A stretch of 64,000 bases of DNA from Chloroflexota bacterium (GTDB lineage: Bacteria > Chloroflexota > Limnocylindria > Limnocylindrales > CSP1-4). The position numbers were made by a program, and so were the translations under genes. The notes under the pieces are model-generated. The model made no database searches and had not been told where the DNA came from. It was given only the letters and a program-made list of their open reading frames with translations. Below are positions 8,042-60,791 of this stretch, one piece after another (position 1 is the first letter of the stretch; each line of letters starts with the position of its first letter). The DNA lies in the NCBI GenBank assembly GCA_021785175.1, contig JAJYGH010000077.1:11709-75708 (forward strand), given 5' to 3'.

Positions 8042-9297
8042 TGGCGCGCCGGCTCCTGCGCGTCCTCGTCCGGAACTGGCCACTGCGACTCGGGGCGATC
8101 GCGCTCGCGACCCTGCTGTACCTCGGGCTCGTGATCTCGCAGAACGCCCGAACGTGGAACGGCCCCGTCCCGATCGACGCGGCGAACCAGCCTGCGGACA
8201 CGTTCCTGCTCGCGAGCCTCGGGAACGTGACGAGCGTGCAGTACATCGCCCCGCTCGACATCGCCGCGCAGGTCACGAGCGCGTCGTTCGTGGCCACCGC
8301 CGACCTCGGCGCGGCGGGCGGGCAGCCCGCCGGGACGCCCGTCACCGTGCCCGTCCACGTCGTCGCACGGGATCAGCGCATCCAGGTCGTCAGCTGGGAG
8401 CCCGCGACCGTGGTTGCGCGCCTCGATCCCGTGATCAGCCAGCAGGTCCCCGTCCAGGTCGATCGCGGGACGGTACCCACCGGCCTCACCGCGGGCCAGC
8501 CCGTGGTCAACCCCACGACCGTCATCGTCACCGGCGCCAGCTCGCTCGTGTCACAGGTATCCTCGGCGGTCGCTCGCGTCGTCATCGACGCGAGCGGCGC
8601 GAACGTCGACACGAACGTCGACCTCGTGGCGGTCGACGCGCGGGGCCAGATCGTGTCGCCCGTGACGATCCAGCCCACGACCGTGCACGTCACGATCTCC
8701 GTCGGCGAGCGGCAGGTGAACCGCACCGTGCCCGTCATCCCGGACGTCACCGGCAACCTGGCGACGGGCTACGCGATCCGCGACGTCACGGTGACGCCGC
8801 TCACCGCGACGGTCAGCGGCTCAGGCTCGAGCATCGCGGCCCTGTCGGGCATCCAGACCGTCCCGATCAGCGTCGCGGGGCGCAGCACGGACCTGACGAC
8901 GAGCGTGGCGTTGCAGCCTCCGCACGGCGTCACCGTCGTCGGTCCGACGAAGGTGCAGGTGCGCGTCCGCGTGACCCTCGAGACCGGGTCCCGGAGCTTC
9001 GGGGCCGGAGTGACACTCTCCGGCGCGCGCGCGGATCGCGTCTACCACCTCTCCATCCCCGATGTGCTCGTGACGCTCGGAGGGTCGAGCGCGGCCCTCG
9101 ACGCGGTCAACCCTGCGACACTGTCCGCGTCCATCGACGTGTCCGGACTGAGCGACGGCACGTTCACGCTTCCCGCCCGGGTCCTGACGCCGGCCGGCAC
9201 GACGCTGGTGGCGATCAGCCCGTCGTCGGTGCAGGTGACCGTCACCGCGCCCGCCCCCAGCCCATCGCCATCTGCGCTCGCCTCACCGGGGTTCTGA
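8038..9297 (+). CDS. cdaR: CdaA regulatory protein CdaR (YbbR-like repeats)
   Basis: N-terminal signal/TM anchor then four Ig-like YbbR-type repeats (V.V.V..G......P..V.V.G); start overlaps cdaA stop (GTGATG). Confidence 0.8.
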   Translation: MMARRLLRVLVRNWPLRLGAIALATLLYLGLVISQNARTWNGPVPIDAANQPADTFLLASLGNVTSVQYIAPLDIAAQVTSASFVATADLGAAGGQPAGTPVTVPVHVVARDQRIQVVSWEPATVVARLDPVISQQVPVQVDRGTVPTGLTAGQPVVNPTTVIVTGASSLVSQVSSAVARVVIDASGANVDTNVDLVAVDARGQIVSPVTIQPTTVHVTISVGERQVNRTVPVIPDVTGNLATGYAIRDVTVTPLTATVSGSGSSIAALSGIQTVPISVAGRSTDLTTSVALQPPHGVTVVGPTKVQVRVRVTLETGSRSFGAGVTLSGARADRVYHLSIPDVLVTLGGSSAALDAVNPATLSASIDVSGLSDGTFTLPARVLTPAGTTLVAISPSSVQVTVTAPAPSPSPSALASPGF

Positions 9298-9300
9298 TCC

Positions 9301-10641
9301 ATGGCACGACTGTTCGGTACCGACGGGATCCGGGGGATCGCGAACGTCGACCTCAAGCCCACGCTCGCCTTCGCGCTCGGGCGCGCGACGGCGCACCTGC
9401 TGGCGGCCGGCCGCGGCCCGATCGTGCTCGGCCAGGACACCCGCCGGTCCGGCGACATGCTGGCGGCCGCGATCGTCGCCGGAGCGACGTCGATGGGCGT
9501 GGACGTGCACCGCGCCGGCGTCCTTCCCACCCCCGGACTCGCGCACCTCGCCGGGATGGGCGCGTTCGCCGCCGGCATCGTCGTGTCGGCCTCGCACAAC
9601 CCCGCCGACGACAACGGTCTGAAGGTGCTCGACCGGCACGGGATCAAGCTCGACGACACCGTGGAGGACGAGCTCGACACGCTCATCTGGCGGGCCGACG
9701 AGCTTGCGAGCCCCACGAACGAGGGGATCGGGCGTGACCTCGACGCGCGCAACCTCGTCGAGGAGTACGTCGCGCACCGGGTCGACCTCGCCCGCCGGAG
9801 CCGGAACGACCTCCGCGTCGTGGTCGACTGCGCAAACGGGTCGGGCTATGCGGTCGCCCGGCGGATCATCGCGGAGAGCGGTGCGAGCGTGACGACCATC
9901 CACGATCACCCGGACGGCGTGAACATCAACCGTGACTGCGGAGCGACCCATCCCGAATCGCTGGCCGCGGCCGTGGCCGAGTCGGGTGCCGATGTCGGGT
10001 TCGCGCTCGACGGCGACGCCGACCGCTGCGTCGCGGTCGACGAGAAGGGTCGCGTGGTCGATGGCGACCGGCTCATCGGGCTCATCGCGCTCGACCGGCT
10101 CGGTCGCGCGGCGCTCGCCGAGTGCACGGTCGTCGTGAGCGTCCTCTCGAACGGTGGCCTGGCGGCCGTGGTGCAGGGCGCCGGCGGCCGGATCGTCCGC
10201 ACCCCCGTCGGCGACAAGTACATCCTCGACGCCATGCTGGTCTCCGGGGCCGGGCTCGGCGGCGAGAAGAGCGGGCACGTGATCGTGGCGGAGCACGCGA
10301 ACGCCGGCGACGGGATCGTCACCGCACTCGAGGTGCTGGGCATCCTCGCGCGGCGCGGACGCCCGCTCTCGGAGCTCGTCGATCCGATCCCGCTGTATCC
10401 CCAGCAGCAGCGCAGCGTCCGCGTGCGCCACAAGGACCAGTGGGATGCCGACCCGATGCTCACCGCCGCCGTGCGGGCGGCGGAGGCCGAGCTGATGCCG
10501 GGTGGCCGCGTGCTGGTCCGGCCGTCGGGCACTGAGCCGGTCCTGCGGATCATGGTCGAGGGCGAGGACGAGTCGAGCGTCGCCTCGCTCGCCGACGGGC
10601 TCGCCGCGCTCGCGACCGAGCGTCTCAACCAGTCGGCGTAG
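9301..10641 (+). CDS. glmM: Phosphoglucosamine mutase
   Basis: MARLFGTDGIRG...VVSASHNPADDNGLKV (active-site Ser motif SASHNP). Confidence 0.95.
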   Translation: MARLFGTDGIRGIANVDLKPTLAFALGRATAHLLAAGRGPIVLGQDTRRSGDMLAAAIVAGATSMGVDVHRAGVLPTPGLAHLAGMGAFAAGIVVSASHNPADDNGLKVLDRHGIKLDDTVEDELDTLIWRADELASPTNEGIGRDLDARNLVEEYVAHRVDLARRSRNDLRVVVDCANGSGYAVARRIIAESGASVTTIHDHPDGVNINRDCGATHPESLAAAVAESGADVGFALDGDADRCVAVDEKGRVVDGDRLIGLIALDRLGRAALAECTVVVSVLSNGGLAAVVQGAGGRIVRTPVGDKYILDAMLVSGAGLGGEKSGHVIVAEHANAGDGIVTALEVLGILARRGRPLSELVDPIPLYPQQQRSVRVRHKDQWDADPMLTAAVRAAEAELMPGGRVLVRPSGTEPVLRIMVEGEDESSVASLADGLAALATERLNQSA

Positions 10642-50219: not shown

Positions 50220-51062
50220 GTGACTCCTCCGGCGTCCCGCCGTGTCCCCGAACGACGTCCACCCGCCACTCAGCCCGCCACTGACTGGATCGGGCTCGGC
50301 GACGCCACTGTCCTGCTCGGCGTCAGCCCCGCCACGCTCCGGCGCTGGTCCGACGAAGGCCGGATCCCCGTCTTCACGACGCCCGGCGGCCATCGCCGGT
50401 ACTCGCGCCGCGCGCTCCGCGCGTTCGTGCCGCACCGCGGGCCGCGCCCGACCCTCGCCCGCCTCGGAGCGTCGGCGGAGCGGATCGCACGCGCATACCG
50501 GGGACCGGGGCGGCGTCACGCCGCCCCGATCGCGCCCGCGACCGGCCACTCGTGGCTCGACGGGCTCGGCGAGCGGGATCTGGCGGCGTTCCGTGCGCGG
50601 GGCAGGACACTCGTCGAGGAACTGCTGCTGCACCTGGACGCCGGGGCGGAGTCGGCGGATGCCGCGGAGCACCTCGAGCGCGCGGTCTCGGCGGCGACAG
50701 AGCATGGGCGCGAGATGGCGCGCCTCGGCTGCTCGACGGTCGCGGCGGTCGAGACCTTCCTGGCGTTCCGTGCGCCGTTCCTCGGCGAGATGACGAGGCT
50801 CGCGCGTCGGCGGAGTCTCGACGCGGCGGAGGCTACGGGGCTCCTCGCGGCCGTCGAGGCGGCCCTTGACCGGCTGCTCGTGGCCACGATCGAAGGGCAT
50901 GCCGAGGGGAAGGCCGGGACCGGCCGCGAAACGACGCCGGGCACCCCGAATGCGACGAGCTCGACGGCCGCTGGAGTGCCGGCAGGCGGGGAGACGCCAG
51001 CGCGGGCAGGGGAACCTGGCGGGCGAAGGCGCAAGGGACCGGACGGGCGGGCGCGGCCGTGA
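50220..51062 (+). CDS. Helix-turn-helix (MerR/excisionase-type HTH_17) DNA-binding protein fused to an uncharacterised ~200-aa domain; candidate heme-operon regulator
   Basis: DWIGLGDATVLLGVSPATLRRWSDEGRIPVFTTPGGHRRY HTH; stop overlaps hemA GTG start. Confidence 0.55.
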   Translation: MTPPASRRVPERRPPATQPATDWIGLGDATVLLGVSPATLRRWSDEGRIPVFTTPGGHRRYSRRALRAFVPHRGPRPTLARLGASAERIARAYRGPGRRHAAPIAPATGHSWLDGLGERDLAAFRARGRTLVEELLLHLDAGAESADAAEHLERAVSAATEHGREMARLGCSTVAAVETFLAFRAPFLGEMTRLARRRSLDAAEATGLLAAVEAALDRLLVATIEGHAEGKAGTGRETTPGTPNATSSTAAGVPAGGETPARAGEPGGRRRKGPDGRARP

Positions 51063-52273
51063 GCGATCGCCCGTTGCCACTCTGGATCCTGGCCGCCCAG
51101 GCGGACCGGCACCCCGCCGAAGCGCGCGCCGCGTTCGCGCAGTCCGCACGCGCCGGCGCCGAGGATGCCGCGTTCCTCGTGACGTGTCACCGTGTCGAGG
51201 TCGTGGCGACGGGGGAGCGCCCACGGGCGTCGATCCAGGCCGCGGCCGGCGAGGCCGCGGCGCGCGGCCTCGCCCATGGGCTGCGCGCGTACGCGGGGCG
51301 CGAGGCGGCCGAGCATCTCTTCCGCCTCGCCGCCGGGCTGGAGAGCGCGGTCACGGGCGAGGACGAGATCCTCCACCAGGTGCGCGAACTCCTCGACGAC
51401 GTTCGGGAGGCCGAACACCCCGATGCCGTCCTCGTGCGCGCGCTCGAGGTGGCGATCGGCGTGGGCCGAAGGTCACGCGCGGAGCGCGAGCGGCCGCAGG
51501 AGCGCGGCCTCGCGGATCGAGCTCTCGACTGGGTGGCGTCGCGCGGCGTGGACATGGCCGGGAGCAGCGTGCTGGTCGTCGGCGCCGGCGTGATGGGCCG
51601 GGCGGTCGCCGTCGGCGCGGGACGGCGCGGGGGCCGGGTCACGGTCGCGAGCCGTGACGTGGAGCACGCGCGGAGCGTCGCGCGCCTGTTCGACGGCGAG
51701 GCATCGGCGCTGGACGCCGCGGCGGAGCGGTTCTGGACGTCGGATGCCGTCGTGGTCGCGCTGGCGGGCCCGTGGGTCGCGCTCGAGCGGGTCGAACGCG
51801 CCGTGCCCGGGCCCGCGGCCGCACCCTGCTGCCCCGCCGTCGTCGACCTGTCGTCACCGCCCGCGCTGTCCGGCTCGATTCGTGCCCACCTCGGCGAGCG
51901 GTACGTGGGGATCGACGACCTGTTCGCCGGGCGGCCGCAACGGGGCGCGGACGCCGAGCGAGTCCGGCGCGAGTACGTCGAGCACGCCGAGCGGCTCGTG
52001 GCGGAGGCGGCAGACCGCTTCGCGCGATGGGTCGAGGCACGGCCGTCGATCGAGACGCTCCGCGCGCTGCGAGCCTCGGCCGAGGCTCGGCGGGTGCGCG
52101 ACCTCGAACGGCTTCTGCGGCGGCTGCCCGATCTCGACCCGCGGCAGCGCGCGCTCGTGTCAGCCTTCTCGGAGCAGCTCGTTGCGGGGATCCTGCACGC
52201 GCCGAGCGCGCGCCTTCACGACGATTCGGACGGGTCGGCGGCCGCGGCGGCGCGACGGCTGTTCGGACTGTGA
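51059..52273 (+). CDS. hemA: Glutamyl-tRNA reductase
   Basis: Catalytic-Cys region FLVTCHRVEV (canonical TCNRxE with N to H), LESAVTGEDEILHQV, NAD Rossmann VLVVGAGVMG. Confidence 0.85.
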   Translation: MSDRPLPLWILAAQADRHPAEARAAFAQSARAGAEDAAFLVTCHRVEVVATGERPRASIQAAAGEAAARGLAHGLRAYAGREAAEHLFRLAAGLESAVTGEDEILHQVRELLDDVREAEHPDAVLVRALEVAIGVGRRSRAERERPQERGLADRALDWVASRGVDMAGSSVLVVGAGVMGRAVAVGAGRRGGRVTVASRDVEHARSVARLFDGEASALDAAAERFWTSDAVVVALAGPWVALERVERAVPGPAAAPCCPAVVDLSSPPALSGSIRAHLGERYVGIDDLFAGRPQRGADAERVRREYVEHAERLVAEAADRFARWVEARPSIETLRALRASAEARRVRDLERLLRRLPDLDPRQRALVSAFSEQLVAGILHAPSARLHDDSDGSAAAAARRLFGL

Positions 52274-53376
52274 GCGCGACGCCGGCGGCGTCTCGGCGCG
52301 CCCTTCGCCTCGGGACGCGCGGGTCCGCGCTCGCGCGGCTCCAGTCGGAGCAGGTCGCGGACGCCCTGCGCGCCCGCGGGCACGCCGTCGAGATCGTCGC
52401 GGTCGTGACCGCGGGCGACGTGCGACCGCCGGACACGGCCTGGGGGGAGGGTGCGTTCGTCGGAGCCCTCGAGCACGCGCTGCTGTGCGGCGAGGTCGAC
52501 CTGGCGGTCCACAGCGCGAAGGACGTGCCGATCGGCGAGGACAGGCCGGGCGACCGCGATGGCGGCGCCGCGCGCGCCCGAGCCGACGGTGCGGCGGGCT
52601 GCCCGGAGGCGCGTGCCGTCGCGCCGGCGACCGACGTGGGCGGCCCGTCCGGCGCTGGGCCGCTCGTGATCGCGGCGTACCCGTGGCGGGAGGATCCGCG
52701 GGATGCCCTCGTCCTGCCTGCCTCGCGCGCGGGCACCGTCCCCGACGCGCCGGCGCCCGCACTGCTGCCTCTTCCCGCGCCGGGGCCCATCCGCTGTGGC
52801 GGTCTCGACGCGGACCTGCTGCCGAGCGGGTCGCGCGTCGGCACCGACAGCCCGCGCCGTGCCGGCTTCCTCCGCGCCGCGCGCCCCGACCTCGAGATCG
52901 TGCCGCTCCACGGCAACGTCGACACGCGGCTGCGGCGCCTCGACGACGGGAATGCGGGTGCGCTCGTGCTCGCCGTCGCGGGCCTTCTCCGTCTCGGGCA
53001 CGCCGCCAGGATCTCGTGCGCGATCGACCCCGAGATCGTGCCGCCGGCGCCCGCGCAGGGCGCCCTCGCCGTCCAGTGCCGGTCGGACGACGGCGAGGTT
53101 CGCGCGGCGCTCGCGGGCCTTGACGACCCGTCGATCCGCCTCGCCGTCGAGACCGAGCGGGCCGTCCTGCGCGCGGCCGGTGGAGGGTGCCGCGCCCCGC
53201 TCGGCGCGTTCGCGACGGTGTCCGGCGGCGTGATCGACCTCGTCGCAGGTGCCGTTGCCGCCGACGGGCGGGCGACGATGACGCGGTCGTCGGCTCCCGA
53301 AGCCGCCTGGCGCGAGCTGGCGGAGTCCACCGCCCGCGCACTGCTGCGCAGCGGGTATCCGGGAGCCGACGAGTGA
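52270..53376 (+). CDS. hemC: Hydroxymethylbilane synthase (porphobilinogen deaminase) with low-complexity insertion
   Basis: LRLGTRGSALA N-terminal motif, cofactor-Cys region GGCRAPLGAFA; GTG overlaps hemA stop. Confidence 0.85.
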   Translation: MSATPAASRRALRLGTRGSALARLQSEQVADALRARGHAVEIVAVVTAGDVRPPDTAWGEGAFVGALEHALLCGEVDLAVHSAKDVPIGEDRPGDRDGGAARARADGAAGCPEARAVAPATDVGGPSGAGPLVIAAYPWREDPRDALVLPASRAGTVPDAPAPALLPLPAPGPIRCGGLDADLLPSGSRVGTDSPRRAGFLRAARPDLEIVPLHGNVDTRLRRLDDGNAGALVLAVAGLLRLGHAARISCAIDPEIVPPAPAQGALAVQCRSDDGEVRAALAGLDDPSIRLAVETERAVLRAAGGGCRAPLGAFATVSGGVIDLVAGAVAADGRATMTRSSAPEAAWRELAESTARALLRSGYPGADE

Positions 53377-54353
53377 CGGACGAAGCCGGCCGCGGGCATG
53401 GGTCCGACGGGCGAGCCGCCGAGCGCGGTCGACGAACCGTCCTCGTGACGCGTCCCGCCGGGCCTGCCGACCCGCTCGTCGCACGGCTCCGGGAGGCCGG
53501 CGTCGCCGTGCGCGCGGTGCCCACCGTTCTCACCCGCCCGCTGCCGCCGGGCGGCGCGCTGGATGAGGCGGTGGCGCGGCTGCTGGAGTTCGACTGGGTG
53601 GTCGTGACGAGTGCCGCGGGCGCGGACGCGTTCGCGGAGGCGTGGGCGCGGGCGCAGCCGACGGAACGCGCTGTCGGTCACGAAACCGAGCGCGGCGGCG
53701 AGGTGCTGGGCGCGCGACCGGCGCTCGGCCTCGACGAGCCCGTCCGCGCGCGGTTCGCGGCCGTCGGGCCCGCCACCGCCGACGCACTCCACCGGACCGG
53801 GTTCACGCCGTCCATCGCGAGCCCCGACGGCACGGCATCCGGGATCGTCGCGGCGCTGCGCGCCGTGGGAGACACGGCCGGGCTCCGCGTCCTGCTTCCG
53901 AGGGCGAGCGCGGCCGCCGCCGACCTTCCCGCCGCGCTCCGCGCCGCCGGCGCGCTGGTCGACGAAGTGGTCGCCTACGAGACCGTCGAGGCGCCGGCCG
54001 AGTCGGCTGCCCCATTGCGAGACGCCCTGGCCGATCCCGACCTCGCCGCGATCGCCGTCGCGTCCGGGTCGGCCGTCCGCGGGCTCGCCGCCCTCGTGTC
54101 GTCGTCCCCGGAAGCCGCGAGGCTCCACTCCGTCCCATTCGTCTCGATCGGTCCCTCGACGTCGGCGGAGGTGCGCCGCCTCGGGCTGCCGCTGGCTGCC
54201 GAGGCGAGCGCGCCCACGGTCGTCGCGCTCGCCGACGCCGTCCTCCGGCTGCTCGATGTGCTCGACGCCGGTCTGGCCGACGCGAGCCCTGCCGCCGGCC
54301 CCGCCGACGCCCGTTCCGCCGGCGTCCCGTCTTCCGTGGAGGTCACGCCATGA
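53373..54353 (+). CDS. hemD: Uroporphyrinogen-III synthase
   Basis: HEM4-like two-domain pattern (TVLVTRPAG...; VVTSAAGADAF; VVAYETV; FVSIGPSTSAE); GTG overlaps hemC stop. Confidence 0.75.
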   Translation: MTDEAGRGHGSDGRAAERGRRTVLVTRPAGPADPLVARLREAGVAVRAVPTVLTRPLPPGGALDEAVARLLEFDWVVVTSAAGADAFAEAWARAQPTERAVGHETERGGEVLGARPALGLDEPVRARFAAVGPATADALHRTGFTPSIASPDGTASGIVAALRAVGDTAGLRVLLPRASAAAADLPAALRAAGALVDEVVAYETVEAPAESAAPLRDALADPDLAAIAVASGSAVRGLAALVSSSPEAARLHSVPFVSIGPSTSAEVRRLGLPLAAEASAPTVVALADAVLRLLDVLDAGLADASPAAGPADARSAGVPSSVEVTP

Positions 54354-55387
54354 CCCTCGTGTCGCGCCCGGCCGTTCCGCACGCCGCCCCGCCCTCGATC
54401 GACCTGCCGCGCTTCGACCGCACCCGTCGGATGCGCGCCTCGGCCGCGCGCCGCTCACTTGTTCGGGAGACCCGGCTCTCGCCCGCGCAGTTCGTCATGC
54501 CGCTGTTCGTGATCCCCGGCCGCGGGCGTCGCGAGCCCATCGCCTCGATGCCCGGGCAATCGCGCCTGTCCCCGGACCTCGTCGTCGAGCTCGCGGGAGA
54601 GCTGGCGTTGCTCGGCGTCGGTGGCCTGATGCTGTTCGGGATCCCCGGCGAGAAGGACCCGGACGGCGAGGCCGCGGCCGACCCGCAGGGCCCGGTGCCG
54701 GAGGCGCTCCGCCTGCTGCGCGAGGCGGGGCTGCCGCTGACGCTGGCGGCCGACGTGTGCCTGTGCGAGTACACGACGCACGGACACTGCGGGATCGTCG
54801 TCGGCGACCGGATCGACAACGACCTGACCCTGCCCCGCCTGGCGGAGGCCGCGGTCGCGTACGCGCGCGCCGGGGCGGACGTCGTCGCGCCGAGCGCGAT
54901 GATGGACGGCCAGGTGGCCGCCATCCGGCACGGGCTCGACGCGGCCGGCGAGACGAATACGGCGATCCTCGCGTACGCCGCGAAGCACGCGTCGGCGCTG
55001 TACGGGCCGTTCCGCGACGCGGCCGATTCGACGCCGTCGTTCGGCGACCGGCGCAGCCACCAGATGGATCCGGCGAACGGACGCGAGGCGCTGCGCGAGA
55101 TGGCACTCGATGCGGCCGAGGGGGCGGACATGCTGATGGTGAAGCCCGCCATCACGTCGCTCGACGTGCTCGCGCGGGCGCGAGAGCGGTTCGACCTGCC
55201 GCTCGCCGCGTACCAGGTGAGCGGCGAGCTCGCGATGGTCGAGGCGGCCGCGGCACATGGCTGGATCGACCGGCGTCGCACCGCGCTCGAACTGCTGACG
55301 GCGATCGCGAGAGCGGGTGCCGACGTGATCCTGACCTACCTGGCCCGCGACGCCGCGACGTGGCTCGCGGAGGAGGCGAAGCGATGA
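54350..55387 (+). CDS. hemB: Delta-aminolevulinic acid dehydratase (porphobilinogen synthase)
   Basis: RRLVRETRLSPAQFVMPLFV, active-site region CLCEYTTHGHCG and Schiff-base Lys region MLMVKP; ATG overlaps hemD stop. Confidence 0.9.
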   Translation: MTLVSRPAVPHAAPPSIDLPRFDRTRRMRASAARRSLVRETRLSPAQFVMPLFVIPGRGRREPIASMPGQSRLSPDLVVELAGELALLGVGGLMLFGIPGEKDPDGEAAADPQGPVPEALRLLREAGLPLTLAADVCLCEYTTHGHCGIVVGDRIDNDLTLPRLAEAAVAYARAGADVVAPSAMMDGQVAAIRHGLDAAGETNTAILAYAAKHASALYGPFRDAADSTPSFGDRRSHQMDPANGREALREMALDAAEGADMLMVKPAITSLDVLARARERFDLPLAAYQVSGELAMVEAAAAHGWIDRRRTALELLTAIARAGADVILTYLARDAATWLAEEAKR

Positions 55388-56211
55388 CCGACAACGCCGG
55401 CGGAAGCGGCACCGACCGGAACCCCGCGCCGGACGCCGCCCAGCAACCCGAGCGACCCCCGTCCCGATACGTCCACGCGCTCGCGCTCGGCCTCGACCCC
55501 GCCTGGCGGCGATTGCCCGCGGCCGAGCGCGAGGGATCGGGCCGCGCCTTCGCCGCCGCGCTCGAGGCTGACCCGTCGATCGTCACCCACACCTACTCGA
55601 TGATCGGCCTCCAGGCCGGGACCGACCTGCTCATCTGGCGGCTCGCGCCGTCGCTCGACGCGCTCGAGCAGGCGGCGGCGCTGGCGCTCCGCTCGGGGCT
55701 GGGCGCCTGGCTGACGGTGCGCGAGAGCCTGATCGGGACGATCCAGCCATCGCAGTACGTGCGGAACCCGACGCAGCAGGAGCAGTCGCTGTTCGAGGGC
55801 GAGCGCTCGGCGTACCTGGTCGTGTACCCGTTCACGAAGTCGACGGAGTGGTACCTGCTGGGGCGGGACGCGCGGCAGGGGATCATGAACGAGCACATGC
55901 GGATCGGGCACCGCTATCCGCAGGTACGGCAGCTGCTCGCGTACTCGTTCGGGCTCGACGACCAGGACTTCATCGTGGCGTACGAGACCGACGACCTTCC
56001 GGGCTTCGTCGACCTCGTGCGCGACCTGCGCGGCTCCGACAGCCGCCGGTCCACCGTGCGTGACACGCCGATCCTGACGGCGGTCCACCGCCCGATCGGC
56101 GAGATCCTCGAGATGCTCGGGGCCACCACGGCGGCGTCGACGCGCAGCGCCGCCGGCGTGTCCGGCCACGGCCGGTCCGGCTCGCGCGACACGGTGGGAG
56201 CGGCGCGGTGA
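55384..56211 (+). CDS. hemQ: Coproheme decarboxylase (HemQ/ChdC, chlorite-dismutase-like fold)
   Basis: YSMIGLQAGTDLLIW and YLVVYPFTKSTEWYLL...YSFGLDDQDFIVAYETDDL typical HemQ; embedded in heme operon. Confidence 0.85.
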   Translation: MTDNAGGSGTDRNPAPDAAQQPERPPSRYVHALALGLDPAWRRLPAAEREGSGRAFAAALEADPSIVTHTYSMIGLQAGTDLLIWRLAPSLDALEQAAALALRSGLGAWLTVRESLIGTIQPSQYVRNPTQQEQSLFEGERSAYLVVYPFTKSTEWYLLGRDARQGIMNEHMRIGHRYPQVRQLLAYSFGLDDQDFIVAYETDDLPGFVDLVRDLRGSDSRRSTVRDTPILTAVHRPIGEILEMLGATTAASTRSAAGVSGHGRSGSRDTVGAAR

Positions 56212-57500
56212 CGGAGACGACCGCCGCGGCGGCGAGCGCTGCCAGGTACCGCCGGCGAGCGGAGGCGCTCTTCCCGGGCGGCGTCAACAGCCCGGTTCGG
56301 GCGTATCGCGCGGTCGGCGGCGACCCGCCCATCATCGTCCGCGGCCGCGGTGCGACCGTCACCGACGTGGACGGCGTGGAGTACCTCGACTACGTCGGCG
56401 CGTTCGGGCCACTCATCCTCGGCCACGCGCACCCGGCGGTGACGACGGCCGCAGTCGCACAGATCGAGGCGGGCGCGCCGTTCGGCGCCACGGCGCCGGC
56501 CGAGGTCGAGCTCGGCGAGGCGATTCGGGAGGCGATGCCGTCGATCGAGAGGCTCCGGCTCGTGAGCTCCGGGACCGAGGCGGTCATGAGCGCGCTGCGC
56601 GTGGCACGTGCCGCGACGGGACGCGAGCTCGTCCTGAAGTTCGAGGGCGGCTACCACGGGCACTCCGACGGGCTGCTTGCCCAGGCCGGGTCGGGCCTCG
56701 CGACGCTGTCCCTGCCGGCGAGCGCCGGCGTGCCGGCGGACGTCGCCGCGCAGACCATCCTCGCCCGCTACAACGACCTTGGGCCGGTCGAGGCGGCGTT
56801 CGAGCGGTATCCGGGCCGGATCGCGGCCGTCATCGTCGAGCCCGTCGCGGCGAACATGGGCGTGGTCGCGCCGGTAGCCGGCTTCCTCGAGGGGCTCCGG
56901 GAGATCACGGCCCGCTGCGCTGCGCTGCTCGTGTTCGACGAGGTCATCACCGGCTTCCGGGTCGCGCACGGTGGCGCCCAGGCGCGCTACCACGTGACGC
57001 CCGACCTGACCGTCCTCGGCAAGATCATCGGCGGAGGGATGCCGGTCGGTGCCTACGGGGGCCGCGCGGACCTGATCGACCTCGTGGCGCCCGTGGGGCC
57101 GGTCTACCAGGCGGGGACGCTTTCGGGTCACCCGGCCGCGATGGCCGCCGGGGCCGCGACGCTGCGACTGCTCGGTGCCGACCTGTACGCCCGCCTCGAG
57201 CGGCTCGGCGCCTCGCTCGAGGCGGGGCTGCTCGAGGCGGCGTCAGCGGCCGGCCGGTCTGTGTCCGTCGGGCGCGTCGGCTCGATCCTGACGCTGTTCT
57301 TTCGCGGCCGCGCGCCGCGGGACTTCGACGAGGTGCAGGAGGCCGACGTTGCCGCCTTCGCGCACTTCCACCGCGCGATGCGGGCCGCCGGAATCCTGCT
57401 GCCGCCCGCGTCGCAGGAGGCGTGGTTCGTCTCCGCCGCGCACACTGACGAGGACGTCGCGCGGACGGTCGAGGCCGCGCGGGAGGCCTTCCGGGCATGA
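56208..57500 (+). CDS. hemL: Glutamate-1-semialdehyde 2,1-aminomutase
   Basis: FPGGVNSPVRAY, PLP-Lys region VLGKIIGGGMPVGAYGG. Confidence 0.93.
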   Translation: MTETTAAAASAARYRRRAEALFPGGVNSPVRAYRAVGGDPPIIVRGRGATVTDVDGVEYLDYVGAFGPLILGHAHPAVTTAAVAQIEAGAPFGATAPAEVELGEAIREAMPSIERLRLVSSGTEAVMSALRVARAATGRELVLKFEGGYHGHSDGLLAQAGSGLATLSLPASAGVPADVAAQTILARYNDLGPVEAAFERYPGRIAAVIVEPVAANMGVVAPVAGFLEGLREITARCAALLVFDEVITGFRVAHGGAQARYHVTPDLTVLGKIIGGGMPVGAYGGRADLIDLVAPVGPVYQAGTLSGHPAAMAAGAATLRLLGADLYARLERLGASLEAGLLEAASAAGRSVSVGRVGSILTLFFRGRAPRDFDEVQEADVAAFAHFHRAMRAAGILLPPASQEAWFVSAAHTDEDVARTVEAAREAFRA

Positions 57501-58657
57501 CGCCGGGTCCCGCTCCGTTCAGCTCCGCTCCGTTGCCGGGTCGCGCTCACGTCGGGACCCCTCGGCCCGAGGCCCGGATCGGCGACGCGACCGGGGCGCC
57601 TGTCGGCGGCGGCGGATCGCCTCGTCGCGACCTGCCCCTGCTGCGTGCGTACCGCCGCGAGTCGGTGCCGTACACGCCCGTGTGGTTCATGCGCCAGGCC
57701 GGCCGCGCCCTGCCCGAGTACCGCGCGATCCGCGAGCGCGCGGGCCTGGCGGAGATCGTTCGCGACCCTGCGCTCTGCACCGAGGTCACGTTGCAGCCGG
57801 TGAGCCGGCTCGGCGTCGACGGCGCGATCATGTTCGCCGACATCACGACGCCGCTGCCGGGCATGGGGGTGGACGTCCGGTTCGTCGAGGGCGTGGGCCC
57901 GGTCATCGACGCCCCCGTGCGCACCCCGGCCGACGTCGCACGGCTGACCCCGTTCGACCCGCAGGACGCCGTCGAGTCGCTCCTCGAGGCCGTCCGGCTT
58001 GTCCGCGCAGAGAGCCCGGTGCCGGTCATCGGGTTCGCCGGCGCGCCGTTCACGCTTGCGAGCTACCTCGTCGAGGGTCGCTCCTCGCGGGATGCGACGC
58101 GCCTGCTCGGCCTGTTCCGCTCCGATGCCACGACGTTCCACGCGTTGCTCGCGCGACTCGTCGACGCGACCGTCGCCTACGCGCGCGCGCAGGTCGAGGC
58201 GGGCGCCGAGGCCATCCAGATGTTCGACAGCTGGGTCGGGGTGCTGAGCCCGTGGGACTACGAGCGCGGGGTGCTCCCGCACATCCGGCGGCTGTTCGCC
58301 GGCCTCGAGGGTCTCGGCGTGCCGCTTGTGCTGTTCGGGACCGGGACCGCCGGACTCCTCGAGCTCCAGGGGGCCTCCGGGGCGACCGTCATCGGCCTCG
58401 ACTGGAGGATCGGGCTGCGGGAGGCGCGCACACGGTTGCCGGCGCTGGCCGTCCAGGGGAACCTCGACCCATCGGCGCTGCTCGGGTCCTTCGATGGCGT
58501 GGCGGAGCAGGCGACGTGGGTGCTCGACCAGGCGACCGGGACGCCGGGACACGTGTTCAACCTGGGGCACGGCGTCCTGCCGGCGACCGACCCCGACGAT
58601 CTCCGGCGGCTCGTGGACCTCGTGCACGAGCGGACGTCGGCGAGGGCAGGGTCGTGA
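57497..58657 (+). CDS. hemE: Uroporphyrinogen decarboxylase, copy 1 (long N-terminal extension)
   Basis: PVWFMRQAGR signature 1, IMFADITTP, GFAGAPFTLASYLVEG signature 2; ATG overlaps hemL stop; alternative later GTG start possible. Confidence 0.88.
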   Translation: MTPGPAPFSSAPLPGRAHVGTPRPEARIGDATGAPVGGGGSPRRDLPLLRAYRRESVPYTPVWFMRQAGRALPEYRAIRERAGLAEIVRDPALCTEVTLQPVSRLGVDGAIMFADITTPLPGMGVDVRFVEGVGPVIDAPVRTPADVARLTPFDPQDAVESLLEAVRLVRAESPVPVIGFAGAPFTLASYLVEGRSSRDATRLLGLFRSDATTFHALLARLVDATVAYARAQVEAGAEAIQMFDSWVGVLSPWDYERGVLPHIRRLFAGLEGLGVPLVLFGTGTAGLLELQGASGATVIGLDWRIGLREARTRLPALAVQGNLDPSALLGSFDGVAEQATWVLDQATGTPGHVFNLGHGVLPATDPDDLRRLVDLVHERTSARAGS

Positions 58658-58728
58658 CGATGCAGGATCCCCCGCTCGCGGGGGAGGCGGCGTGCGGTGC
58701 GCGCACGCGTGTCGCCGGGGCCGGGCCG

Positions 58729-59808
58729 ATGACGGGGGAGCGGCGGTTCCTCGCCGCGTGCCGCCTCGAGCCCGTCGACGCCACGCCCGTCTGGTACATG
58801 CGGCAGGCCGGGCGGGGCATCCGCGAGTACGAGCTGATGCGCGACCGGTATGGCGTGCTCGGCATCGCGCGGACCCCGGAACTCGCCGCGCGCGCGAGCG
58901 TGCTGCCCGTCTCGGCGTACGGCGTCGACGCCGCCGTCATGTATGCCGACGTCATGCTCCCGACCGGGCCCATGGGCGTCGAGTTCGACCTCACTCCCGA
59001 GGGTCCCGTGCTCGCCGCGCCGTTCCGCTCCCCGGCAGATGTCGCGCGGCTCCGCGCGTACGAGCCCGAGGACGAGCTGGCGTTCGCGATGGAGGCGATC
59101 CGGATCGCGCGACGGGAGCTGGACGGGCGGCAGGCGCTCATCGGCATCGCCGGCGGCCCGTTCACGCTCGCGGCGTATCTCGTCGAGGGCCGCGCGACGC
59201 GCGACCAGGCGACGGCGCGCGCGTTCATGTACGCACAGCCGGAGGCGTGGCACGACCTGCTGAGCCGAATCGCGGAGGTCGGGCGTCGCTACGTGGCCGC
59301 GCAGGTGCACGCGGGCGTGCAGGCCGTGCAGGTGTTCGACACGTGGGCCGGGACCCTGTCCCCGGCGGACTACGAGGCGTACGTGCTGCCGCACGCGTCC
59401 CGGCTCATCGAGGGCGCGCGGGGCGTGCCGGTGATCCACTACGCCGCGGGCGGATCGGGCCTCGTCGAGCTGCTCGTGCGCGCCGGGGCCGACGTCGTCG
59501 GCGTCGATGCCCGCGCATCGCTCGACGAGGCGTGGAGCCGGGCGGGGACGGGCGTCGGGATCCAGGGCAACCTGGACGGCGCGCGCCTCCTGGCCGGCTG
59601 GGATGCCGCCGAGCCCGGAGCGCGGCACGTCCTCGACGAGGCGGCAGGCCGGCCCGGCCACATCTTCAACCTGGGCCATGGCATCCTGCCCGGCACCGAT
59701 CCCGCGCTGCTGGCCCGTCTCGCGGACTTCGTCCACCAGGAGTCGGCGAAGCGGCCGGCGGCGGAGCGGACCGGGGGCCGGCGCGCCACCACGGAGGTGT
59801 CAGCGTGA
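58729..59808 (+). CDS. hemE: Uroporphyrinogen decarboxylase, copy 2 (tandem paralogue)
   Basis: MTGERRFLAACRLEPVDATPVWYMRQAGR aligns with the canonical HemE N-terminus; VMYADVMLP; IAGGPFTLAAYLVEG; alternative start ATG 58660 right after copy-1 stop. Confidence 0.85.
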   Translation: MTGERRFLAACRLEPVDATPVWYMRQAGRGIREYELMRDRYGVLGIARTPELAARASVLPVSAYGVDAAVMYADVMLPTGPMGVEFDLTPEGPVLAAPFRSPADVARLRAYEPEDELAFAMEAIRIARRELDGRQALIGIAGGPFTLAAYLVEGRATRDQATARAFMYAQPEAWHDLLSRIAEVGRRYVAAQVHAGVQAVQVFDTWAGTLSPADYEAYVLPHASRLIEGARGVPVIHYAAGGSGLVELLVRAGADVVGVDARASLDEAWSRAGTGVGIQGNLDGARLLAGWDAAEPGARHVLDEAAGRPGHIFNLGHGILPGTDPALLARLADFVHQESAKRPAAERTGGRRATTEVSA

Positions 59809-60791
59809 TCGACGATCGCCTCGGCGGGGCGAATCCCCCTGGTCCCCGGAGCAGCCCCACCGGGGTCCTCCTCATGACGTACGGCTCGCCCCATGACCTC
59901 GAGGACGTGCCGCGCTACCTGTCCGCGGTCCGTGGCGGGCGGCAGCCCGAGCCCGAGCTCGTCACGGAATTCACGCGGCGGTACGCGCTCATCGGCGGTT
60001 CCCCGCTCGTCTCGATCACGCGCCAGCAGGCCTCGGCGCTCGAGGAGCGTCTCGGTGCGGGCTACCGGGTGGCGGCCGGGATGCGCTTCTCCGATCCGAC
60101 GATCGCGTCGGCGCTCGCCAGCCTCCACGAGGCCGGGTGCGGGCACGTCGTCGCGATCGTGCTGTCGCCGCAGTATTCCGACCTCATCATGGGTGGCTAC
60201 GGGAGAGCCGTCGCGGCCGCCCGCCAGTCGATCGGCCCGGACGCGCCGCGCGTCGCGATCGCCGGTTCGTGGCACCTGGAACCCGCCTTCGTCGCGGTGC
60301 TCGCGGCGCGCATCCGCGAGTCGCTCGCGCGGTTCCCCGAGGCGGCGCGCGCCTCCGTCCCGGTCCTGCTCACCGCGCACAGCCTGCCGAGGCGTGTCGC
60401 CGAACAGGAGCCCGGGTACCTGCGCCAGCTCGACGAGACGGCGACGGCGATCGCAGAGGCTGCGGGGTTGCCGCGCGACCGGTGGCACTTCTGCTGGCAG
60501 AGCGCCGGCCACGAGCCGGGGGAGTGGATGACGCCCGATTTCGCCGATCTCGTGCCACGGCTGCGGGCGGAGGGGCACCGCGCGGTCGTCGTCGCCCCGA
60601 TCCAGTTCCTCGCCGACCACCTCGAGACGCTCTACGACGTGGCGATCGGTGCCCGGGAGCAGGCCGAGACGGCGGGCATGGCGTTCCAGCAGATCCGGGC
60701 GCTGAACGCCGACCCCGGTCTCGTGGAGGCGCTCGCCTCCGTCGTGCACGGCACGGAGGCCGAGGCGGTTCCCGCGGCTGCGGTGCCCTGA
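59805..60791 (+). CDS. cpfC: Ferrochelatase (coproporphyrin ferrochelatase CpfC/HemH type inferred from HemQ context)
   Basis: GVLLMTYGSP N-terminal motif, AIVLSPQYS, HSLP metal-binding His-Ser-Leu-Pro; GTG with GGAGG 8 nt upstream, overlaps hemE2 stop. Confidence 0.88.
   Translation: MIDDRLGGANPPGPRSSPTGVLLMTYGSPHDLEDVPRYLSAVRGGRQPEPELVTEFTRRYALIGGSPLVSITRQQASALEERLGAGYRVAAGMRFSDPTIASALASLHEAGCGHVVAIVLSPQYSDLIMGGYGRAVAAARQSIGPDAPRVAIAGSWHLEPAFVAVLAARIRESLARFPEAARASVPVLLTAHSLPRRVAEQEPGYLRQLDETATAIAEAAGLPRDRWHFCWQSAGHEPGEWMTPDFADLVPRLRAEGHRAVVVAPIQFLADHLETLYDVAIGAREQAETAGMAFQQIRALNADPGLVEALASVVHGTEAEAVPAAAVP

Follow-up and report, generated by a model that had tools for sequence, protein, structure and literature searches.

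The window analysed here is a stretch of 64,000 nucleotides (nt) of contig JAJYGH010000077.1 from a soil/freshwater, Limnocylindria-like member of the Chloroflexota, with a G+C content of ~74%. It contains a heme cluster of ten genes on the + strand (50220-60791), arranged in the order merR-like, hemA, hemC, hemD, hemB, hemQ/chdC, hemL, hemE1, hemE2 and hemH. Two adjacent genes of this cluster, hemE-1 (57497..58657, + strand, 386 amino acids (aa)) and hemE-2 (58729..59808, + strand, 359 aa), code for proteins of the uroporphyrinogen decarboxylase (UroD, HemE) family, and both are already annotated as a plain 'uroporphyrinogen decarboxylase' of a Chloroflexi/Chloroflexota metagenome-assembled genome. 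In the original prediction, which was made from the sequence alone, they were described as tandem duplicated hemE genes inside a single heme operon, both looking catalytically competent. The location of both genes within one heme operon was confirmed by profile matches for hemA-C-D-B-Q-L-E1-E2-H, and a matching gene order was identified in related loci.

Both proteins were identified as bona fide members of the HemE family, as had been predicted. The cut-off of the NCBIfam hemE equivalog TIGR01464 is 302.95 bits, and it was exceeded both by the canonical HemE-1 with 370.7 bits and by the divergent HemE-2 with 338.3 bits; R37, R41, D86, Y164 and H339 are kept in the two copies. Residues are numbered here as in human UROD, which was verified by counting R37, R41, D86, Y164 and S219, and their roles follow the UniProt list of binding and catalytic residues, to the extent that it is quoted in PMC3510221. 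The quoted PVW, catalytic-Asp and GxAGxPFTLAxYLVEG signatures are present in both open reading frames (ORFs) on the + strand at the coordinates given above. The proteins share 46% identity over 339 aa (E = 6e-98), in agreement with the predicted clear divergence of the copies from one another.

For hemE-1, the ATG start codon overlaps the stop codon of hemL (ATGA) and a Shine-Dalgarno sequence, GGGAGG, is located 10 nt upstream; the only alternative usable start is a TTG at 57533. HemE-1 matches the whole Pfam URO-D profile with 390 bits, and its best solved relative is Bacillus subtilis HemE (PDB 2INF; E = 4e-95, 322 bits, residues 48-380 in phmmer). Its motifs are PVWFMRQAGR, IMFADITTP and GFAGAPFTLASYLVEG. 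In HemE-1 and in every upstream orthologue, the R37-R41 segment, D86, Y164, S219 and H339 are all identical to the UniProt list, and the audited conserved residues of HemE-1 are all canonical except for K178L. The N-terminal extension of copy 1 noted in the original prediction is real in the window, where it consists of a low-complexity, lineage-specific segment of ~43 aa past the usual start (57497..57634, + strand): TPVW begins after residue 59, as compared to residue 16 in most orthologues, which start with MNDRLLRAYRR. However, it is not conserved among orthologues, in which extensions range from 0 to 55 aa without sequence conservation and are absent in most cases; those rich in Pro, Gly and Ala, with a length of 8-55 aa, are limited to the immediate subclade of the window. 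A conserved functional N-terminal extension was rejected, since both length and sequence vary and most orthologues lack it. From its sequence, the extension looks like a side effect of tying the hemE-1 start to the hemL stop rather than a functional domain.

HemE-2, with its conserved MTGERRF start, also matches the whole Pfam URO-D profile (349 bits) and likewise has B. subtilis HemE 2INF as its best solved relative (E = 3e-84, 287 bits). Its motifs are PVWYMRQAGR, VMYADVMLP and GIAGGPFTLAAYLVEG. An AlphaFold2 (AF2) model of HemE-2, with a predicted local distance difference test score (pLDDT) of 81.4, was superimposed with template modelling (TM) scores of 0.84-0.86 on 24 solved UroD chains of 34-43% identity. 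The (beta/alpha)8-barrel fold of UroD was thus identified for both copies, by the AF2 model for HemE-2 and by the phmmer match to 2INF for HemE-1. HemE-2 keeps R37, R41, R50, D86, Y164 and H339 and carries the substitutions F154I, R47E, S219T and K178R, of which the Thr replacing S219 is also present in ~35 of 150 family representatives. The core residues of HemE-2 being intact, neither copy is degenerate in the window genome; a degenerate paralogue had been named in the original prediction as a finding that would speak against it. A methyltransferase-type URO-D paralogue was rejected by family scores and by fold ranking: the two proteins reached 72.8 and 73.7 bits with TIGR01463, which has a cut-off of 235.4 bits, and 39-56 bits with the MtaA/MtbA equivalogs, which have cut-offs of 400-600 bits, and the HemE-2 model matched an MtaA-type methyltransferase with a TM score of 0.75 at 19% identity.

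The tandem pair is shared by related genomes, the absence from which would likewise have spoken against the original prediction, and was identified in loci L001-L005, L072 (with L034), L076, L086, L087, L088 and L169, so that it recurs in at least ten related Chloroflexota loci. In L001-L005, which were found in a scan of GTDB, the upstream copies are 75-81% and the downstream copies 76-83% identical to HemE-1 and HemE-2 of the window, respectively. Both proteins also recur, identical or nearly so, on many (>10) contigs (10-110 kb; NCBI, ENA and Logan) that were assembled independently. An assembly artefact or chimera was rejected because the pair recurs both in the related loci and on these independent contigs. 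Among named organisms, Candidatus Limnocylindrales/Limnocylindria of the phylum Chloroflexota are the nearest relatives. The tandem arrangement is rare outside the Limnocylindria-like group: a single hemE was identified at the locus in the other 73 GTDB loci and in all 80 metagenome loci fetched. The latter go back to a metagenome scan with an alignment of the hemE-1 type, in which the matches listed were mostly relatives of 50-68% identity. In a profile search of 1.84 billion representatives, the downstream type with F154I was represented by three 50%-identity clusters only. Operons containing hemE of the hemE-2 type alone were identified in L081, L082 and L083, and operons containing the hemE-1 type alone in L084, L085, L170 and L171.

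Among the latter, L084 (1-17029, GCA_049967415.1, Candidatus Limnocylindrales) is a close relative, with 75% identity for HemE-1 and 84% for HemB, and is nested in the HemE-1 clade of the window. Its flanks match those of the window, with MFS and merR-like genes upstream and HAD, NUDIX and acyltransferase genes downstream. Its operon consists of hemA-C-D-B-L-E with hemE of the hemE-1 type, and hemQ, hemE-2 and hemH are missing at the locus, a statement that covers the locus only. In the wider family, P0251 and P0255 (HemD-HemE), P0258 (HemE-ferrochelatase) and P0358 (HemE-radical SAM/HemN_C) were identified as natural fusions of a URO-D domain with the enzyme that acts before it (HemD) or after it (HemH, HemN-like) in the pathway. 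A length of 635-660 aa was found for ~15 of the 150 best family representatives.

Neighbour-joining trees showed that HemE-1 and HemE-2 are never sisters (0 of 100 bootstraps). The clade of the HemE-1 type was obtained with a bootstrap value of 100 and that of the HemE-2 type with 92.5. Among the database matches, proteins of the HemE-1 type are 63-99% identical to HemE-1 and 44-52% to HemE-2, and proteins of the HemE-2 type are 43-56% identical to HemE-1 and 56-99% to HemE-2. The term 'tandem duplicated' used in the original prediction is misleading in this respect, since the copies come from two deep HemE clades, either of which provides the sole hemE elsewhere. A recent duplication or gene conversion was rejected on the basis of the 46% identity of the copies, the bootstrap values and the two separate clades.

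The two copies have not diverged to the same extent. A residue audit covered 33 positions at which conservation reaches 95% or more in a set of 137 family representatives; upstream copies deviate at 0-1 of these positions, and downstream copies at 2-4, always including F154I. Both F154I and K178R are found in every downstream copy. F154, a nearly invariant residue of the pocket, is replaced in ~8 of 150 family representatives, and three of these are of the downstream type. R47E, S219T and K178R are striking in comparison with the 73 loci, yet they are common variants in the wider family, and the changes at R47, S219 and K178 are not counted as signs of degeneration, since these positions are less invariant in the 150 representatives than in the audit of 73 sequences. 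In Tajima relative-rate tests with a close outgroup, HemE-2 had 64 unique changes against 22 in a single-copy relative of its own type (P = 6e-6), and further comparisons of downstream copies with such relatives gave 64 vs 30 (P = 5e-4) and 54 vs 32 (P = 0.02), the excess being on the downstream side each time; the acceleration was weaker with a Bacillus outgroup. For HemE-1 against single-copy proteins of the HemE-1 type, no significant excess was detected when the close outgroup was used (29 vs 19 in one case, P = 0.15), and several comparisons with the Bacillus outgroup reached P = 0.01-0.05. The TIGR01464 scores are ~389 bits for single-copy proteins of either type, 371-380 bits for upstream copies and 340, 338 and 322 bits for downstream copies, with P0243, the downstream copy L169_b, at 287.5 bits and below the cut-off; the HemE model score of HemE-2 of the window is thus ~50 bits below that of its single-copy relatives. 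The sequences indicate that HemE-1 is canonical, that HemE-2 is faster-evolving and that the copies are not equivalent. The predicted competence of both copies holds as far as the named core residues are concerned, but an equal standing does not, in view of F154I, the faster evolution and the lower HemE score of HemE-2.

Purifying selection on the genes was determined from the ratio of nonsynonymous to synonymous substitution rates (dN/dS), given as NG86 medians for the window and eight related loci. These medians are 0.23 for hemE-1, 0.18 for hemE-2, 0.19 for hemL, 0.16 for hemB and 0.23 for hemH. In the least saturated pairs, hemE-1 and hemE-2 have values of 0.115 and 0.129 (L001-L003) and of 0.126 and 0.116 (L004-L087), respectively. 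The value of 0.18 for hemE-2 spans 28 orthologue pairs with ~25% amino-acid divergence, and no frameshift or stop codon was identified in eight independent orthologues of hemE-2. The amino-acid identities of the orthologues of HemE-1 and HemE-2 resemble those of HemH. The dN/dS values, these identities and the retention of the core residues together indicate, at the level of the sequences compared, that hemE-2 is a functional gene in the clade of the window and is not decaying.

Stop and start codons overlap in the window at the hemL/hemE-1, hemE-1/hemE-2 and hemE-2/hemH junctions, which argues for a co-translation of hemL-hemE1-hemE2-hemH in a fixed proportion. Possible starts of hemE-2 are a GTG at 58654, which overlaps the hemE-1 stop (GTGA), and ATG codons at 58660 and at 58729, the last being that of the conserved MTGERRF; from the earlier starts, the protein would have a length of 382-384 aa. 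The segment 58654..58728 (+ strand) is a variable spacer or an optional N-terminal extension of HemE-2, as the GTG at 58654 is in frame with hemE-2. Among the tandem loci, the spacer between the genes has lengths of -4 to 116 nt; it is hypervariable in its sequence as well. An ATGA or GTGA overlap at the hemE-1 stop is present in nearly all of them. In L004, L087 and L169, the overlapping codon is itself the conserved MTGAE start of the downstream copy, and in L076 the stop codon of the upstream gene already contains the beginning of the conserved start (GTGATG). In the remaining tandem loci, a hypervariable spacer of 38-116 nt precedes the conserved start. Several spacers, in a set comprising the window (58657-58729), L001-L005, L072, L086 and L088, open with a second 'MTG' start which overlaps the hemE-1 stop. 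From their sequences, it appears as if the start region of the spacer had been repeatedly duplicated or expanded.

In sister lineages, downstream copies have been eroded or lost. L076_b contains R41G, and L004_b and L087_b contain H339Q. In L169_b (P0243), R41G, H339E and G340A were identified in an intact ORF of 360 aa, which has a 4-nt overlap with its canonical upstream partner. L086_b (9062-10165) contains R41A, D86V and G340A and is split by an in-frame stop into ORFs of 96 aa and 269 aa; it is a hemE-2 pseudogene located between an intact hemE of the hemE-1 type and hemH. The downstream copy is absent from L084, L085, L170 and L171. Since binding or catalytic residues, the ORF or the whole copy have been lost in sister lineages that contain the hemE-1 type, the sequences indicate that catalysis by the downstream copy is dispensable wherever a gene of the hemE-1 type is present.

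The remaining genes of the cluster, all on the + strand, were assigned as follows. The first gene codes for a MerR/HTH_17-type regulator (50220..51062) with matches to Pfam HTH_17 and MerR. It overlaps the start of hemA by 4 nt, also precedes hemA in L082 and L084-L087, and its orthologues often have a weak RsbRD_N match. It is a candidate regulator of the heme operon in Limnocylindria-like bacteria and is not known to have a characterised counterpart. For hemA, glutamyl-tRNA reductase (51059..52273), NCBIfam hemA models matched with a score under the curated cut-off, and Pfam GlutR domains are present in orthologous loci. The genes hemC, hydroxymethylbilane synthase (52270..53376; TIGR00212, 231.8 bits against a cut-off of 164), and hemB, porphobilinogen synthase (54431..55387; NF006762, 433 bits against a cut-off of 297), are located on either side of hemD, uroporphyrinogen-III synthase (53445..54353), for which weak NCBIfam HemD matches were obtained and the place of which is taken by HEM4 in related loci. 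Downstream of hemB, hemQ/chdC, coproheme decarboxylase (55384..56211), matched HemQ_actino with E = 6e-34, under the cut-off, and Chlor_dismutase is present at this position in related loci. For hemL, glutamate-1-semialdehyde aminomutase (56208..57500), TIGR00713 gave 536.7 bits against a cut-off of 527.3, and its stop codon overlaps the hemE-1 start as described above. The last gene, hemH/cpfC (59805..60791), codes for a full-length ferrochelatase with matches to Pfam Ferrochelatase (238.6 bits, 59805-60788) and TIGR00109; its GTG start at 59805 overlaps the hemE-2 stop (GTGA), with a GGAGG upstream.

The presence of hemQ together with a Bacillus-type hemH marks the operon as one for the coproporphyrin-dependent route of heme synthesis, which has been reviewed (PMC7242693). 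By tblastn with genes of L085 as queries, no homologue of the cgoX/hemY or hemN-like genes was identified in the window. In the single operons of the hemE-1 type in L085 (10057-12628) and L170 (7069-9562), a radical-SAM gene and a gene for an amino-oxidase of the HemY/CgoX type come next after hemH; these two were not called 3' of hemH in the tandem loci with flanks past hemH (the window, L086, L087 and L088). A scan of the 12-kb operon region revealed no promoter-like sites above chance and one terminator-like hairpin (57274-57294, + strand, inside hemL), as compared to 1.2 expected by chance.

On balance, we think that hemE-1 and hemE-2 are probably anciently diverged HemE paralogues or xenologues, of which HemE-1 would be the main enzyme and HemE-2 a partly redundant, translationally coupled subunit or isoenzyme. 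In such a system, HemE-1 would act as the uroporphyrinogen III decarboxylase supplying coproporphyrinogen III to the CpfC/ChdC branch, and hemE-2 would stem from the HemE lineage whose genes stand alone, as the only hemE, in this operon in other Limnocylindria-like bacteria. Co-residence with hemE-1 may have altered the constraint on hemE-2, with fixation of F154I, a faster evolution and, in some lineages, the loss of residues or deletion. In the clade of the window, HemE-2 most likely folds as a UroD barrel and binds porphyrinogen, and would most likely provide a further decarboxylase subunit, which is partly redundant and made in step with HemE-1. UroD is a cofactor-free homodimeric enzyme with juxtaposed active sites that face each other across the dimer interface, and because of these juxtaposed sites, mixed dimers of HemE-1 and HemE-2 would be the most economical arrangement. 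A heterodimerisation of the two is plausible, with the overlapping stop and start codons as indirect evidence of a physical complex. The identity of the genes, the conserved pair, the clades, the unequal divergence, the purifying selection and the overlapping codons are observed in the sequences, whereas a retained activity of HemE-2, the formation of heterodimers and the assignment of one copy as the newcomer are inferences.

The following observations weigh against this interpretation. Only F154I is truly unusual in HemE-2 of the window, hence the protein could simply be a fully competent isoenzyme, which is conceivable because single-copy HemEs that are presumably functional often have S219T, K178R or, at position 47, a residue other than Arg. 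The downstream copies with F154I were obtained as one clade with a bootstrap value of only 51. In a backbone tree of hemB and hemL, which is effectively unrooted since the loci picked as outgroups lack these genes, the tandem, hemE-1-only and hemE-2-only states are interleaved, so that the distribution is patchy; with this interleaving, the history is either an ancient duplication followed by differential loss or an operon-level transfer of one type into operons containing the other. Furthermore, dS values of ~0.7 at 93% GC3 may be partly saturated, and absolute dN/dS values are rough.

A more specific arrangement, which we regard as possible and put forward only tentatively, is an obligate natural UroD heterodimer, in which HemE-1 would contribute the sole canonical site and HemE-2 a non-equivalent one, dead in some lineages, which would tune the reaction or hand on coproporphyrinogen. 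A HemE-1/HemE-2 heterodimer with one canonical site would be viable because Phillips et al. 2009 state in their title (cited as ref 409 in PMC13564367) that UROD can make coproporphyrinogen without shuttling between its two sites, and such a heterodimer would explain how eroded copies persist as intact ORFs. If true, the engineered single-chain UROD heterodimers would have an equivalent in nature, and no asymmetric UroD would have been described before it. It is doubtful that the genes code for two independent homodimeric isoenzymes, both fully active and kept for dosage or for kinetic specialisation (early versus late steps, or uroporphyrinogen I versus III). Their existence would be consistent with the HemE score of HemE-2 above the cut-off, with the residues that it keeps (R37, R41, R50, D86, Y164 and H339), with a purifying selection as strong as that on hemE-1 and with the occurrence of most of its substitutions (S219T, K178R and position 47) in single-copy HemEs. 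However, a separate activity that was needed should not repeatedly lose R41, H339, D86 or the whole copy where hemE-1 is kept, and the tight stop/start coupling fits a co-assembly at least as well. We consider it unlikely that HemE-2 has essentially no catalytic activity and is turning into a pseudoenzyme, kept because it supports HemE-1 in structure or regulation or passes porphyrinogen on to the coupled ferrochelatase. When a pseudoenzyme is taken as a selected ORF with loss of catalytic residues, some relatives correspond to this in part, namely P0243/L169_b, which has remained an intact ORF (360 aa, 287.5 bits) despite R41G, H339E and G340A, and L004_b and L087_b, which contain H339Q at a mutual dN/dS of 0.116; F154I is universal in downstream copies and the hemE-2 stop overlaps the hemH start, and the HemE-HemH, HemD-HemE and HemE-HemN fusions found elsewhere show that UroD can be physically tied to its pathway neighbours. 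The clade of the window, in contrast, has lost none of the residues for which structures directly show a part in binding or catalysis, HemE-2 of the window having its core residues intact, and any role of this kind would be dispensable, with L086_b being a pseudogene and the copy missing in L084, L085, L170 and L171.

Two further explanations were considered. That hemE-2 is redundant, has no function of its own and has not yet been lost during a slow xenologous displacement is improbable: the same operon slot does hold either type alone in other genomes, the downstream copies are decayed or lost in several lineages and their lineage is accelerated, but the dN/dS of 0.18 over 28 pairs equals that of essential neighbours and is incompatible with neutral drift in the clade, and the eight independent orthologues are free of frameshifts and stops. 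A different chemistry of the URO-D superfamily, either as a methyltransferase like MtaA/CmuA or with a non-heme tetrapyrrole as substrate, can hardly be expected for HemE-2. Non-decarboxylase members do exist in the superfamily, and F154I alters the hydrophobic floor of the pocket; against this, the MtaA/CmuA models gave 74 bits with a cut-off of 235, the fold matched MtaA with a TM score of 0.75 (19% identity) as compared to 0.85 (34-43%) for UroD, and in all loci the gene is located strictly between hemE-1 and hemH inside the heme operon.

To our knowledge, bacteria have been described with one hemE, the product of which acts as a homodimer. B. subtilis HemE (2INF) resembles both copies in its end-to-end alignment, barrel fold, binding and catalytic residues and its neighbours hemH and hemQ, whereas here two diverged, adjacent and coupled HemE genes are present, the downstream one with F154I and a faster evolution. 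No description of a tandem or heteromeric bacterial HemE was found in the searchable literature, within which multi-copy UROD is otherwise known only from algae and plants. In plants, diatoms and other algae, UROD isoenzymes are encoded by several copies of different evolutionary origin (PMC11914136, PMC5115734). Such genomes likewise retain several bona fide UROD genes, but these copies arose by endosymbiotic transfer and are unlinked nuclear genes that are differentially targeted or expressed, in contrast to the co-operonic genes of a bacterium without compartments. Two non-equivalent sites are also present in human UROD heterodimers that were engineered as single chains with one site disabled (PDB 3GVV/3GVW) and were among the structural matches of the HemE-2 model; these are artificial, whereas the asymmetric dimer considered for the present pair would be a natural one. 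The siroheme decarboxylase AhbA/AhbB, like NirDL/G/H, consists of two paralogous subunits encoded by adjacent genes (reviewed in PMC7242693). It likewise is a decarboxylase for acetate side chains of a tetrapyrrole built from a pair of paralogues, but the likeness is an analogy only, since the fold is unrelated and the substrate is siroheme. The methylcobamide:CoM methyltransferases MtaA, CmuA and MtbA share the URO-D fold and show that paralogues of HemE can gain a new function; HemE-2 differs from them in scores far under the cut-offs and in the absence of a corrinoid or methyltransferase context, and falls on the HemE side.

Why the two active sites of UroD face each other is debated and has been probed only with engineered single-chain heterodimers. 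The lineage described here provides a natural series, from an intact downstream copy via the loss of binding residues and a pseudogene to deletion, each beside a canonical HemE. Both genes are annotated simply as 'uroporphyrinogen decarboxylase', and the downstream copy should not be counted as independent evidence of capacity in pathway reconstructions for Limnocylindria. With the series itself, it could be tested if a dimer can manage with a single good active site, and it could be shown how redundant paralogues of dimeric enzymes drift to pseudoenzymes or vanish.

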